Source: an uncultured Candidatus Woesearchaeota archaeon (lineage in GTDB: Archaea; Nanobdellota; Nanobdellia; Woesearchaeales; UBA525). From it: a stretch of DNA of 64,000 nucleotides. The position numbers and the translations under genes are program-made. Of the stretch, positions 45,071 through 51,501 are shown one piece after another (the first letter of the stretch is position 1; every line of letters starts with the position of its first letter). Where the stretch lies: the NCBI GenBank assembly GCA_963724455.1, contig CAVRUV010000042.1, positions 2,468 through 66,467 of the forward strand, in the 5' to 3' direction. The notes below the pieces were generated by a model. That model was not told the DNA's origin. It was given only the letters and a program-made list of their open reading frames with translations, and searched no databases.

Positions 45071-45160
45071 GTGCCGCCTTGAAGTTATCCAGAAATCAAG
45101 CCGATTCATGCAGGCTTGATTTCGCAAAGGCTGCCGGTGGCAGTAAATGCTTCGCGGCAC
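45071..45160 (+). repeat. structured intergenic element, copy A (candidate ncRNA)
   Basis: GTGCCGC-CTT-GAAG ... CCA-[GAAATCAAGCC]-GATTCATGCA-[GGCTTGATTTC]-GCAA ... CTTC-GCGGCAC. See the first finding. Confidence 0.7.
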
Positions 45161-45255
45161 AGTTGTTTTAATAGAGAATCGTCTTTTAAACCTTTCGAAG
45201 AGAAAAGAGATAATATATGAAAAACCTCATAAACCCCTAAAGATACCCGTAGTTT

Positions 45256-45927
45256 ATGCGAATCGGTATATTATTCTCATCAGGTAAAGACAGCACAGCG
45301 ACCTTATGGCACGCTATAGCCCAAGACCATGAAGTCGTATGCTTATTATCGCTAATACCAGAAAATACCGACTCATACATGTTTCAAGCGCCGCATAAAG
45401 AACTCTTGCTTATGCAAGCAAAAAGCCTTGAACTGCCAATCATCTTCCAGCAAACAAAGGGCGAGAAAGAAGAAGAGTTAGAAGATCTAATAACACTACT
45501 AAAGCGCGCAATAGATGAATACAAAATCGAAGGCATTGGAGCTGGCGCGCTAGCATCAGAATACCAATATGATAGGATTGCAAAGATTGCGCAAGATCTT
45601 GATATCAAGACATTCACACCATTATGGCGCAAGGACCAAGAACAACACATGAGAGAAATCATCTGCGCAGGATTTGATATACGAATGACGCGAGTTGCAG
45701 CCGATGGCCTTGATAAAAGCTGGCTCGGGCATAAACTAACATTAAGCGATGTTGACAAGCTCGTTGAAATCAATAAAAAACTAAAGATAAACATCGCCGG
45801 CGAAGGCGGTGAATTCGAAACAATAGTCCTTGATGGCCCGATGTTCAAATTCCCAATAGAAGTTTCGTATAACATACATATGGAAAATGAACGCAGAGGA
45901 GAATTGCGCATAACAGAAGTGAAATGA
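45256..45927 (+). CDS. PP-loop ATP pyrophosphatase, MJ0570/Dph6-like (diphthine-ammonia ligase family)
   Basis: MRIGILFSSGKDSTATL PP-loop, about 220 aa, and GEGGEFET near the C-terminus. Confidence 0.7.
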   Translation: MRIGILFSSGKDSTATLWHAIAQDHEVVCLLSLIPENTDSYMFQAPHKELLLMQAKSLELPIIFQQTKGEKEEELEDLITLLKRAIDEYKIEGIGAGALASEYQYDRIAKIAQDLDIKTFTPLWRKDQEQHMREIICAGFDIRMTRVAADGLDKSWLGHKLTLSDVDKLVEINKKLKINIAGEGGEFETIVLDGPMFKFPIEVSYNIHMENERRGELRITEVK

Positions 45928-46304
45928 TGGAATCGTACTTCGGATTATCGGCAAAGAGATGGTATGATGAATTCTCAAAAAAAGGAATGGATATTTTTTC
46001 AGAAAACAGCGTTCCAGATTCTGATATTTTAATTATTTTAGGACGATGCTGTGTTGGAAGAGAAATTATCACACCAGTTTTAATAAAAAATAACTGGACA
46101 TTGGATAGATTCATTGAAGCTGAAAAAAAACTTGGTGTTGATACAGAAAGTCTTCAAATGATGGTTGGTGAATATTTAGAATATAGTAACATTGACCATA
46201 GAAGAATGAATCCTCGTGAGATGAGAGCGCTTATTGATTCCAATTTTGACCTCAGAACTCTCATGAGCAAAGGAGCCACCGCACTTCAAAATTATAAACA
46301 TTAA
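45924..46304 (+). CDS. hypothetical protein
   Basis: 126 aa. ATGA overlap with the upstream gene. Confidence 0.45.
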   Translation: MMESYFGLSAKRWYDEFSKKGMDIFSENSVPDSDILIILGRCCVGREIITPVLIKNNWTLDRFIEAEKKLGVDTESLQMMVGEYLEYSNIDHRRMNPREMRALIDSNFDLRTLMSKGATALQNYKH

Positions 46305-46503
46305 ATGAAAATTAATTGAATCTTTTTACAATCAATCATTTTTTACAATCATTCATAAGTTTAATAACACATAAATAATTTTCATTCATAATCCTCTAAC
46401 TAATAATTCCTAAATAATCCTACTAATCCATAATTTTTAATAAATTTATTTCAGACTTATTTTTTATAAAAACATACTTAAACACTGCAATAAATAATAT
46501 GGC

Positions 46504-46758
46504 GTGGCTGAACATAAACATACCGGCGGAACAAAAGAATTTGTCTACACAAAAGAAGATGATGAACGCATTAGAAATACAGACACTAATTCTACAAGAG
46601 CATTCAAACACGCACTGTATGCACATCAAGCAAAAAAGAAACTAGAAGAAATACATAAATTAGAAAAACAACAAACCCAAATTAAAGGCATCATCATTCT
46701 ATTAATCACCCTATTTACCCTTTTATTCATACTCATGCTGCTCAGAATATTCCAATAA
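46504..46758 (+). CDS. small tail-anchored hypothetical protein
   Basis: 84 aa with a GTG start in the track and a C-terminal TM segment IIILLITLFTLLFILMLL. Weak call. Confidence 0.3.
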   Translation: MAEHKHTGGTKEFVYTKEDDERIRNTDTNSTRAFKHALYAHQAKKKLEEIHKLEKQQTQIKGIIILLITLFTLLFILMLLRIFQ

Positions 46759-46876
46759 AACGCCTTGTGCGCAGAGCATTTCTCGTCAACAACCCAAACC
46801 AATATAAACCCCCGCGTGTTGCAATATAATAGTCATTTATCGACGAGAAATAATACAAATATACACCTGTGAAACA

Positions 46877-49611: not shown

Positions 49612-49797
49612 CGCCACCTTGGAGCAACCCTAGATTTTATGTCGATTCGTTGGAACTCATAGATTTCCAACGGACAGAGAAGCTATGCTTCGTCCGTCCA
49701 TGCAGACATAAAATCCTAAAACCTTCGAGGGATTCGGTTTGAAAAAGCGAATCCGCAGGAACGAAGTGACGAGGACGAGAAGCAATTCTCCGTGGCG
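49612..49797 (+). repeat. structured intergenic element, copy D (long form with a 51-nt insertion in the conserved loop)
   Basis: CGCCAC-CTT-GGAG ... [GATTTTATGTC]-GATTC(51 nt)ATGCA-[GACATAAAATC] ... GGGATTCGG..GCGAATCC hairpin ... CTCC-GTGGCG. It starts 15 nt after the toxin stop. Confidence 0.7.
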
Positions 49798-49872
49798 ATA
49801 AAAATAAATGAGTAATATTAGTAAATCACTAATTCTCTGAGAAGTAAACAATAATTTTTTGCAGCAAACTCA

Positions 49873-50298
49873 TCATTCTTCTACGCGCACAGTCACATAT
49901 GCCAAATCAATATTCGGCATGTTTTCAAAGCGAATAGGAAATGGTTCGGTAGAATTAATGCGCCGCTTGAACTCTGCATCAAACAACTTAACTTGTTCAT
50001 CGAGATTCAATTTAGTTATATCCCCTAAAGCAGAATGCGAATCAAGAGGCATGCCAATATACGCGCCATACGCATTAGGACCAAACCCGCTTGCAACTAT
50101 TCCGAATTGTTCCGGCATTGAAAAACCAGGATACAATAAGAATGTGCTATCTTTGAATTGCCCATAAAGAGGAACACCCGCATCAGAGTCGCATAACTGC
50201 ATAAACTCTTGCTCATCAAGCGTCAACTGAAAATGCTTACGTTCCTTCAATATACCAAGGGAGTACTTCATAACAACAGGGAATGCCCAATCATTCAA
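49873..50298 (-). CDS. hypothetical protein
   Basis: 141-aa ORF with no motif recognised. Confidence 0.45.
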   Translation of the reverse strand: MNDWAFPVVMKYSLGILKERKHFQLTLDEQEFMQLCDSDAGVPLYGQFKDSTFLLYPGFSMPEQFGIVASGFGPNAYGAYIGMPLDSHSALGDITKLNLDEQVKLFDAEFKRRINSTEPFPIRFENMPNIDLAYVTVRVEE

Positions 50299-50529
50299 AA
50301 AGATTTGTGAAAGACAAATTAATACCCAAAACCTTTATAAACCATCTGCGGATTCTTTGTATTAACCCGTTTTACCAGCAGGTGTGGAGTATCTAAACAC
50401 ATCAGCACAGTCAGAAGTATCTCTACTATTTTGGGTAACATATCAACGATTCGTTCGTCGATAAAATCATATTCAACATGCATAACTAATGCATAAACAC
50501 AAAAAAACTAAACACTCAGAGGAAACAAT

Positions 50530-51348
50530 ATGGCTGAAAAGAAAAAACAATACGGCGCAAAAATAAAGAAGAAGCATTGGGCACCAATTCTAGCCCCTAA
50601 AGTGTTCGATCACGCTATTATCGGTGAAGCACACGTACTAGAGAACGAAGAACTCCTAAAAAAGAGCATCTCCGTTAACTTAATGACACTTACAGACGAC
50701 CCTAGAAAGCAGGGTTTCTCCATTCGTTTTGATGTAAAAGAGATCAAAGACGGCAAGGCATACACCCAGATTGTTGGTTTGCAAATGACACCATCAGCTA
50801 TCAAGCGCCTCATGAGAAGAGGTAGAGATAAGGTCGATGACAGTTTCACATTGAAAATCGCAGGCGGAAGAATGGCAAGAGTTAAACCAGTTCTTGTAAC
50901 AAACACCAAATGCTCCAGAGCAACACAAACTGAGATTAGACTTGCTACAAGAAAGCGCCTTCGCGACTACTTTGCAAGAATGAGATTCGAAGATATCATC
51001 AAGGAAATCGTTGACATAAAGATACAGCGCATGCTTAAGGATATCGCAGGCAAGACCCATCCAGTCAGAAGCGCAGACATAAGAGAATTCTTAGTCTTAC
51101 CAAATGACAGAAAGGTCTCTATAGAAATGGAAGAGCTTATCGAAAAGGAAGTTGCTGAAGAAGAAGCACGCCGTGCTCAATTAGCAAATGCAGCTGCAGC
51201 AGCAGGTGTTGGCGAAGAATCCGTTGCTTTAGCAGCAGCAAAGAGCAGAAAGCCAAAGAAGAAACAGCTTGCACCGCAAGAGATGGAAGATGTTTCAGAA
51301 GCTGGCGAGTCCAAGAAAGAAGAAGGCCCTGAAGAACCAGGAGTATAA
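50530..51348 (+). CDS. rps3ae: 30S ribosomal protein S3Ae (eS1) with an acidic/Ala-rich C-terminal extension
   Basis: KKKHWAPILAPKVFD...GEAHV... and the following S3Ae-like core. About 70 extra C-terminal residues (EEEARRAQLANAAAAAGVGEE...). Confidence 0.85.
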   Translation: MAEKKKQYGAKIKKKHWAPILAPKVFDHAIIGEAHVLENEELLKKSISVNLMTLTDDPRKQGFSIRFDVKEIKDGKAYTQIVGLQMTPSAIKRLMRRGRDKVDDSFTLKIAGGRMARVKPVLVTNTKCSRATQTEIRLATRKRLRDYFARMRFEDIIKEIVDIKIQRMLKDIAGKTHPVRSADIREFLVLPNDRKVSIEMEELIEKEVAEEEARRAQLANAAAAAGVGEESVALAAAKSRKPKKKQLAPQEMEDVSEAGESKKEEGPEEPGV

Positions 51349-51365
51349 GCCAAACTTAGCGTCAA

Positions 51366-51501
51366 GGTTGCCTTGGAGTAAAACCAGAAAATGTGTCGAT
51401 TTATGCAGACGCATTTTCGTAAAACCTTCGAGGGATTCGGTTCGTAGAAGCGAATCCGCAGGAACGATAGTGACGAGGACGAGAAGTAATTCTCCGCAAC
51501 C
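51366..51501 (+). repeat. structured intergenic element, copy C (long form)
   Basis: GGTTGC-CTT-GGAG ... CCA-[GAAAATGTGTC]-GATTTATGCA-[GACGCATTTTC]-GTAA ... GGGATTCGG..GCGAATCC ... CTCC-GCAACC. It starts 18 nt after the rps3ae stop. Confidence 0.7.

Follow-up and report, generated by a model that had tools for sequence, protein, structure and literature searches.

The DNA analyzed here is a 64,000-nucleotide (nt) stretch, hereafter called the window, of contig CAVRUV010000042.1 from an uncultured Candidatus Woesearchaeota archaeon, and the subject of this report is a family of structured elements that lie between its genes. An initial annotation, made from the sequence alone, had described four such elements (A, B, D, and C, in map order) near xfp, a dph6-like gene, gyrB, a mazF-like toxin gene, and rps3ae. 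These gene assignments were borne out: the gyrB product has four gyrase B domains, Pfam confirms Diphthami_syn_2 (dph6-like; its open reading frame [ORF] starts at 45256), MazE/PemK, and S3Ae, and xfp is assigned by synteny with a related locus, L045 (related loci, designated by L numbers, are stretches of 8 to 22 kb). Copy A lies in the xfp/dph6 divergent spacer and may be in the dph6 leader. Copies B, D, and C start 32, 14, and 17 nt past the stop codons of gyrB (ORF end, 48808), the PemK/MazF-like toxin gene (ORF end, 49597), and the S3Ae gene (ORF end, 51348), respectively, much as had been noted.

All four copies were found where they had been placed, with the outer helices, the CTT, the 4-bp helix (P2), the 11-bp hairpins (H1), and the GATTCATGCA loop described for them. 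A covariance model of the element (R1), with which the window was scanned in full with filters off, returned exactly five copies and no degenerate relics in the 64 kb. The fifth copy, E, sits on the minus strand, and the common orientation that had been described thus holds for A to D only. Copy E precedes by 30 nt a gene for an Rpr2/Rpp21-like RNase P subunit, recognized by Pfam, and is probably in the 5' untranslated region (UTR) of this gene. The copies and their parts, including the second hairpin (H2), are as follows.

45071..45160, plus strand: copy A, short form (R1 score, 84 bits; E = 7e-20), with outer helix GTGCCGC/GCGGCAC at 45071-45077/45154-45160, CTT bulge at 45078-45080, P2 formed by GAAG at 45081-45084 and CTTC at 45150-45153, H1 at 45092-45102/45113-45123 with its loop at 45103-45112, and H2 (CTGCC-GGT-GGCAG) at 45131-45143.
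48841..48923, plus strand: copy B, short form with a degenerate second hairpin (R1, 75 bits), with outer helix GTCGC/GCGAC at 48841-48845/48919-48923, CTT at 48846-48848, P2 at 48849-48852/48915-48918, and H1 at 48860-48870/48881-48891.
49612..49797, plus strand: copy D, long form, with outer helix CGCCAC/GTGGCG at 49612-49617/49792-49797, CTT at 49618-49620, P2 at 49621-49624/49788-49791, and H1 at 49633-49643/49705-49715.
51366..51501, plus strand: copy C, with a short H1 loop and an enlarged second-hairpin module (R1, 61 bits), outer helix GGTTGC/GCAACC at 51366-51371/51496-51501, CTT at 51372-51374, P2 at 51375-51378/51492-51495, and H1, with one G-U pair, at 51387-51397/51408-51418.
30553..30463, minus strand: copy E, short form (R1, 80 bits; E = 9e-19), with outer helix TTGTCGC/GCGACAA at 30553-30547/30469-30463, CTT at 30546-30544, P2 at 30543-30540/30473-30470, and H1 at 30532-30522/30511-30501 with loop GATTGGTGCA.

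Copy B has no stable second hairpin. The 10-nt loop that had been called conserved is interrupted in copy D, where GATTC is followed by 51 nt forming two hairpins (49649-49699) and then by ATGCA; the second-hairpin module of this copy is also enlarged and contains GGGATTCGG...GCGAATCC and GTGACGAGGACGAGAAG. Copies C and D resemble each other closely in their second-hairpin modules (about 91% identity) but have unrelated H1 and outer stems, meaning either that H1 and the outer helices evolve fastest or that copies swap segments. In the minimum-energy fold of C and D, CCUUGGAG pairs with CUUCGAGG, P2 is not formed, and the 3' CUCC is placed in a local GAGAA/UUCUC hairpin; this predicted fold is a possible alternative conformation specific to that subtype.

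The elements stand well clear of chance in the window. A composite pattern (CCTTGRAG-N3-6-CCAGAAA-N6-CGATT) had four matches there and none in 100 shuffles, a 17-mer common to C and D had two matches against 0.03 expected, and the folding z-scores of the copies relative to their own shuffles ranged from -3.0 to -4.8. Five copies in 64 kb correspond to roughly one per 13 kb.

A search beyond the window, which the initial annotation had suggested as a check, showed that the family is widely represented. When the composite pattern was run against one genome per prokaryotic species, 42 loci were recovered, 36 of which belong to seven metagenome-assembled genomes (MAGs) of Candidatus Woesearchaeota (UBA10207, A_NAN_12, t2.113, clean1619, RIFCSPHIGHO2_02_FULL_36_9, RIFCSPHIGHO2_02_FULL_39_9, and UBA153). 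The other six were single matches in unrelated bacteria, devoid of the remainder of the element, and about as many as were estimated for chance from the specificity of the pattern and the size of the collection. A metagenome collection yielded 63 further loci, and a viral collection scanned with the same pattern yielded no matches, so that a viral origin was dismissed. R1 gave 46 and 61 matches on the genome-scan and metagenome loci, respectively, often several per 8-kb locus; the combined structural alignment holds 84 R1 matches, of which 77 are distinct, from loci of 34 to 69% G+C. A search for strain variants found no record elsewhere of the S3Ae and MazF products of the window.

Across this family the element is about 85 to 190 nt long and has a constant three-armed architecture with differing stem sequences. 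The outer helix is usually 5 to 14 bp, extending to about 28 bp with G-U pairs in UBA10207, and ends in an invariant C-G pair, after which a 3-nt CUU bulge occurs on the 5' strand only. P2 (GGAG/CUCC) follows below a three-way junction, and the junction strand after its 5' arm ends in CCA. H1 consists of a GAAA/UUUC base and seven freely varying pairs, 11 bp in all, capped by the loop GAUUCAUGCA, which is found in 43 of the 77 copies (GAUUUAUGCA in 16 and GAUUGGUGCA in 4). G(C/U)AA separates H1 from H2, a hairpin present in 71 of the 77 copies with many different stems and frequently GGA at its apex; on its 3' side, about 5 nt lead to CUCC-G, and the element closes with the 3' arm of the outer helix. 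In total, sequence conservation across genomes of 34 to 69% G+C covers about 35 nucleotides that are unpaired or basal.

Extra hairpins, mostly triloops closed by C-G, are confined to three fixed peripheral sites. One is inside the H1 loop, where copy D and 12 of the 77 copies are expanded (the site is also used in L005, L011, L017-L019, L027, L029, L036, and L040); another is inside the H2 loop (C, D, L025, L026, L042, and L029), and the third is just 5' of the CUU bulge (L004, L011, and L029).

We also observed divergent relatives, here called type 2, that keep just the outer helix and the GC-CUU-GG...CC-GC base and have a different, CGAG-rich interior, with P2 represented by GGCG/CGCC, GGGA/UCCC, and others. 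They occur at the following places.

L028: 1054-1149 and 4711-4806, both minus strand.
L039: 1049-1152.
L040: 1720-1815.
L021: 4935-5081.
L045: 3550-3650, minus strand, and 6139-6254.
L044: 6152-6243.

Because the type 2 relatives retain only the outer helix and the base, the basal motif looks like the most conserved feature, which hints at a broader superfamily with the basal bulge as its hallmark.

Repeat units of the UBA10207 lineage are longer, with a conserved 5' TTAATTTAGGAGTACCTCGTGCTTCAGCTCGAGG and an additional covarying 3' hairpin (CCCCGCCC-TTTA-GGGCGGGG) followed by TTATTCAT. Such long units were found at L010 3560-3960, L028 756-1156, and L039 7437-7837 and 5560-5960, and in L021 and L016.

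The initial annotation had based its case on compensatory changes in the stems of four copies, and this is upheld by 77 distinct copies from many genomes. In the alignment of these sequences (A5), which was fitted to R1 and hence favors the structure, standard pairs fill 93.4% of the cells (69.5% in shuffles), both sides have changed in 22 of 25 pairs, and none of 500 shuffles attained any of five measures. Sliding the 3' partners by one to three columns reduced pairing to 34 to 48%, against 93% in the true register. H1 is paired in 99.4% of its cells with double changes in 10 of its 11 pairs, and P2 variants covary as well (GAAG/CUUC, GUAG/CUAC, GGAA/UUCC, and GGCG/CGCC). Two results are free of the fit to R1. 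A MAFFT alignment (A3), for which the extraction script required the five innermost outer-helix pairs and left H1 unconstrained, gave the same picture. Besides, when mutual information was computed for all variable column pairs, the top 10 were predicted base pairs, and the scan showed no non-helical covariation and no sign of a pseudoknot. The fold is conserved through compensatory change and is under selection.

Two signals point to a strand-specific fold. Among mismatches in the core helices (P2 and H1), G-U outnumbers A-C by 16 to 2, while the outer helix has 27 G-U and 22 A-C. On average, the sense strand has a folding advantage of 1.3 kcal/mol over the antisense strand (44 copies versus 28; Wilcoxon P = 0.002). 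Both the G-U excess and the folding advantage fit an RNA and also fit a single DNA strand of fixed polarity. The proposal of a candidate novel class of structured elements selected for RNA or single-stranded DNA (ssDNA) structure is supported.

All copies lie strictly between genes. The 124 genes that flank them are housekeeping genes of diverse kinds, encoding, for example, TATA-binding protein (TBP), topoisomerase VI (Topo VI), an elongation factor (EF), SRP54, a tRNA synthetase, and acetate kinase; the most frequent family among them was seen no more than twice, and neither a transposase nor an integrase is among the recurrent ones. It had been argued that the termini of the element are not transposase-recognized repeats, and this accords with our results, since the termini are variable and covary within single genomes, no transposase recurs, and no target-site duplications were seen.

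Each of the five window copies shares its orientation with an adjacent gene. Over the wider set of loci, orientation was assessed from purine loading, which needs no gene caller (the coding strand is purine rich in 74 to 93% of genes). By this test, the upstream flank was co-oriented with the element in 38 cases and not in 10, so that about 79% of the copies follow the direction of the upstream gene; in tandem gene contexts, 15 elements were sense and 3 were antisense. Siting just past stop codons, as had been emphasized for B, D, and C, is accordingly a tendency of about 79% and not a rule. A shared orientation of neighboring copies is not a family trait at all, given that copy pairs in other loci comprise six on the same strand and five on opposite strands.

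Three further features were considered as parts or functions of the element and rejected. An own promoter was not recognizable, with no TATA box at a fixed distance and with the boxes that were seen fitting divergent, leaderless neighbor genes. An A-rich 3' tail proved to be context dependent (A fraction of 0.47 where the downstream gene is co-oriented and 0.34 otherwise). The arms of H1 and the outer helix, regarded as possible guides, had no meaningful matches elsewhere in the window.

Comparison with relatives shows both persistence and turnover. L044, L045, and L047, whose GyrB sequences are 88%, 83%, and 80% identical to that of the window, retain the xfp-dph6...gyrB...rps3ae synteny. L044 has an ortholog of B past gyrB (3008-3102), whose outer helix, P2 (GGAA/UUCC), and H1 differ from those of B and whose core nucleotides do not, as well as a divergent element past rps3ae (6152-6243), at the position of C. 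In L045, the xfp/dph6 spacer contains a divergent member, at the position of A, and orthologs of B and C are lacking; L047 has no element. Five orthologous pairs with flanks 74 to 94% identical retain 19 to 25 of the 25 base pairs, with four to seven compensated double changes against zero to four single changes, and several orthologous pairs differ as long versus short form. This retention is an argument that the copies are either selected at each of their sites or repeatedly converted from intact ones. In UBA10207, the identity of near-identical copies extends to about 35 nt of 5' flank and about 45 nt of 3' flank. No direct repeats were found at the junctions of these or other copies, and the ends were not fixed by a clean empty site.

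Some sites are themselves variable. The gyrB-rps3ae interval is a variable gene slot (48809-50529 in the window, 2957-5248 in L044, 12011-14621 in L045, and 11951-14111 in L047), which in the window holds the MazE/MazF toxin-antitoxin pair, flanked by copies B and D, and one minus-strand ORF; in the relatives with 80 to 88% GyrB identity it holds wholly different genes. Just past copy D, the motif TATTAGTAAATC occurs once (49816-49827), not above chance in the window, and it occurs slightly varied three times between genes of L044 (near 3180, 4530, and 6310); it could represent another small repeat or a promoter element. A 102-nt element at L030 3344-3480 (A_NAN_12) is matched in the orthologous L014 5944-6311 (clean1619) by a small ORF of about 118 codons. 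Because L014 has this ORF and not an empty site, elements occupy sites of gene gain or loss. At L011 4748-4891 and L091 549-697, the downstream 250-nt flanks are identical, the elements are 95% identical, and the upstream flanks are unrelated, and a 48-nt two-hairpin insertion beside the CUU bulge is present in L011 and not in L091; this pattern stems from recombination at the repeat or from chimeric assembly.

The reading that we favor, at a probability of about 0.45, is that the element is a selected structured RNA module, mostly located in 3' UTRs, that docks a protein. We prefer it because of the conserved single-stranded nucleotides, the peripheral placement of insertions, the compensation in situ, the excess of G-U in the core, and the orientation bias toward the upstream gene. 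The elements would act as RNA within the transcripts of adjacent genes, usually in the 3' UTR at 13 to 60 nt past the stop codon and sometimes, as for E, in the 5' UTR. The nucleotides of the bulge, junction, and loops would form the docking surface, with the stems as a scaffold only, and binding would affect how the 3' end of the host transcript is formed, how the transcript is processed, or how stable it is. New copies would arise through duplication at the DNA level. A bolder and doubtful extension is a new archaeal ribonucleoprotein signal, in which a dedicated protein or nuclease reads the helix-CUU-bulge-helix base and the junction and thereby defines or protects mRNA ends. Such a signal might serve as "punctuation" between the genes of streamlined DPANN genomes, its hypervariable complementary stems might keep dozens of copies from recombining or mispairing, and the base motif would be the functional core of a superfamily including the type 2 relatives. 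To our knowledge, DPANN archaea, with genomes of about 1 Mb, have almost no described noncoding RNA biology. The element is unlikely to be idle, because it is kept intact at 34 to 69% G+C while occupying a real share of scarce intergenic DNA.

Several points weigh against an RNA module. Sense-strand transcription, the protein partner, and its effect on the transcript are all things that we infer only from sequence patterns. No consistent promoter or oligo-T terminator accompanies the elements. G-U pairs are very rare (7 of 847 H1 cells, 0.8%), and the stems fold nearly as well on the antisense strand; the rarity of G-U and the C-G-closed triloops suit DNA palindromes as well as RNA. Near-identical copies (95 to 100%) at unrelated loci of UBA10207 indicate recent duplication. 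Some intact copies are truly antisense to both neighbors, as in L008, between rmlD-like and NTP-transferase (nucleotidyl-transferase) genes. Finally, ORF calls passed through a codon log-odds filter give no orientation bias (25 convergent, 13 tandem-sense, 16 tandem-antisense, and 8 divergent contexts). The conflict with purine loading arises in G+C-rich loci, and we gave more weight to purine loading because its errors can only dilute a bias.

The main rival is nonautonomous mobile DNA, a folded single strand recognized by a trans-acting enzyme from elsewhere in the genome, either an HUH/Y1 transposase, as for IS200/IS605 and REPIN-RAYT, or a tyrosine recombinase, as for attC sites, with the bulge and loops as recognition features and the stems free to vary. 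We consider this possible though rather unlikely. It would suit the high copy number, both in the window and in the 8-kb loci that hold several copies, the close UBA10207 copies that share short flanks at unrelated loci, the patchy presence among relatives (none in L047, and no B or C ortholog in L045), the nearly pure Watson-Crick helices with their triloop-rich optional hairpins, and the copies antisense to flanking genes; the absence of conserved inverted termini and target-site duplications is typical of ssDNA transposons. However, no transposase or recombinase recurs among the 124 neighbor genes, a count that one distant gene would escape, and the 5' junction shows no conserved target tetranucleotide. 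The near-even strand counts of copy pairs, together with four plus and one minus copies in the window, do not show the local strand bias of lagging-strand targeting. Old orthologous copies are undecayed and their pairing is kept by compensated changes, copies are biased to the orientation of the upstream gene (38 versus 10), and, unlike those of REPINs (paired repetitive extragenic palindromes), the stems differ widely within one genome. That orientation bias would also be unexpected if the elements were independent small noncoding RNA genes, trans-acting or forming ribonucleoproteins, with a common protein-binding core and copy-specific stems, much as in a paralogous family such as tRNAs or Y RNAs. 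Conserved loops combined with copy-specific stems do recall paralogous RNA gene families, copies remain intact in divergent spacers or antisense contexts (A and L008), and UBA10207-type copies have a conserved upstream TTAATTTA (TATA-like) box and, downstream, a covarying G+C-rich hairpin followed by TTATTCAT. In most genomes, however, there is no TATA-like signal at a fixed distance, the clear TATA boxes being those of divergent leaderless neighbors, and no oligo-T tract follows the elements, which leaves autonomous genes an unlikely explanation.

Two other explanations appear weaker still. Functionless palindromes whose complementarity is kept by hairpin template switching or short-patch gene conversion, and not by selection, would have nearly perfect Watson-Crick stems, as is seen, including an outer helix in which G-U is as rare as other mismatches. 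They would also fit adjacent stem positions that differ in blocks between orthologs (four consecutive pairs in L030/L014) and the similarity of the C/D modules beside unrelated stems. We nevertheless hold this to be quite improbable: correction of DNA arms cannot account for about 35 unpaired nucleotides conserved at 34 to 69% G+C, the outer-helix arms still covary at distances of 80 to 190 nt, the core has its 16:2 ratio of G-U to A-C, and insertions are restricted to three peripheral sites. The long closing helix with an invariant 3-nt bulge beside a 4-bp helix superficially resembles a processing stem, which raises the idea that the tRNA splicing endonuclease of archaea treats the element as a bulge-helix-bulge substrate, to be excised and circularized into a stable circular RNA. 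The bulge-helix-bulge motif requires that each strand of a 4-bp helix be followed on its 3' side by a 3-nt bulge, one of which may be replaced by a loop. The element has only the CUU bulge of the 5' strand, and this lies 5' of P2. Placing the central helix in the last 4 bp of the outer helix does not help, the opposite strand being paired there without interruption; above the bulge, the 5-nt junction strand has no flanking helix. Besides, a 48-nt insertion sits at the bulge itself in some copies. We regard this idea as hardly tenable; the likeness to tRNA introns and rRNA processing stems, also in the archaeal host, stops at the wrong register and the lack of a second bulge or loop 4 bp away. 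The window does contain a tRNA gene with an anticodon-loop intron of about 38 nt (25367-25477, minus strand; Rfam, 54 bits; ARAGORN reports none in the window), which is ordinary and a separate case.

The initial annotation had matched the core to no known RNA class, and this still stands. No Rfam 15 family matched any copy at gathering scores, for which the whole window and seven related loci were covered, or matched the elements at E of ≤10 in window positions 44500-52000; a long-form copy gave only matches of 15 to 20 bits against cutoffs of 39 to 88. A tRNA-like origin was dismissed, as ARAGORN finds no tRNA or transfer-messenger RNA (tmRNA), and so was an IS200/IS605 omega-RNA, as sot0042 scores 17 to 18 bits against a gathering score of 88 and covers only the G+C-rich 3' hairpin of the UBA10207 type. 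No TnpB or Y1 transposase adjoins any copy, judging from the 124 neighbor genes. A K-turn bound by L7Ae does not fit either, in that the bulge is followed by Watson-Crick GGAG/CUCC pairs, covarying as such, and not by sheared G-A pairs. A classical MITE (a miniature transposable element bounded by inverted repeats) is at odds with outer helices that differ among the five window copies and across genomes and that covary. We found no description of such an element in the literature on DPANN or Woesearchaeota structured RNA and miniature inverted repeats or in the broader literature on circular RNA, bulge-helix-bulge motifs, and REP-like repeats.

In kind, the element is most like the bacterial ERIC (IRU), BOX, Correia, and repetitive extragenic palindromic (REP/BIME) elements. 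Like them, it is multicopy, about 100 nt long, strictly intergenic, stably folded, and often just downstream of genes; it has longer variants produced by fixed-site insertions or modular composition, and its route of mobility is unclear. Compensatory changes have reportedly been seen in ERIC as well. It differs from these elements in its archaeal (DPANN) host, its three-way junction, the absence of sequence similarity, and a basal CUU-bulge motif common to a wider set of relatives. Furthermore, in those elements the stem sequence is the repeat, whereas here the bulge, junction, and loops are conserved and the stems are hypervariable within one genome, which also led us to reject a REP/REPIN assignment. 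With REPIN/RAYT and IS200/IS605 derivatives it shares the lack of conserved terminal inverted repeats and of target-site duplications; those elements function via a folded single strand with bulged bases, and their mobilizing enzyme need not adjoin. REPINs are also said to persist long at orthologous sites. Unlike in these systems, no conserved 5' target motif and no replication-strand bias were seen in the available loci, and REPIN stems are conserved within a genome whereas those of the element differ among all copies. We consider the element a real and well-supported, undescribed family of structured dispersed intergenic repeats or UTR elements that is specific to the Candidatus Woesearchaeota (DPANN) lineage.

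Integron attC sites are comparable in conserving structure but not sequence, in having extrahelical bases near the stem base and a variable, maybe branched, terminal structure, and in often lying right after a gene; B and D flanking a cassette-like MazEF module in a variable slot recall this arrangement. An attC identity was nonetheless rejected. The termini lack R''/R' boxes (RYYYAAC/GTTRRRY), there are no co-oriented cassette arrays, the neighbors are housekeeping genes in both orientations (gyrB and the S3Ae, TBP, and Topo VI genes), no integrase lies nearby or among the recurrent neighbor families, and the loops and junction of the element are conserved in sequence whereas those of attC are not.

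If the RNA protein-binding module is real, it points to a new posttranscriptional system in uncultivated archaea and adds a well-supported new three-way-junction fold to RNA structural biology. If the element is instead a mobile element working through folded ssDNA, REPIN or attC-like biology would have a counterpart in archaea. In both cases, the conserved loops and hypervariable stems make an unusually clean natural covariation data set, and Woesearchaeota genomes can be annotated for the element with the R1 model.

One more spacer of the window deserves mention. The ackA/xfp spacer (42465-42623) is extremely A+T rich, rich in T runs, of low complexity, and free of the element; its counterpart in L045 holds a divergent element.

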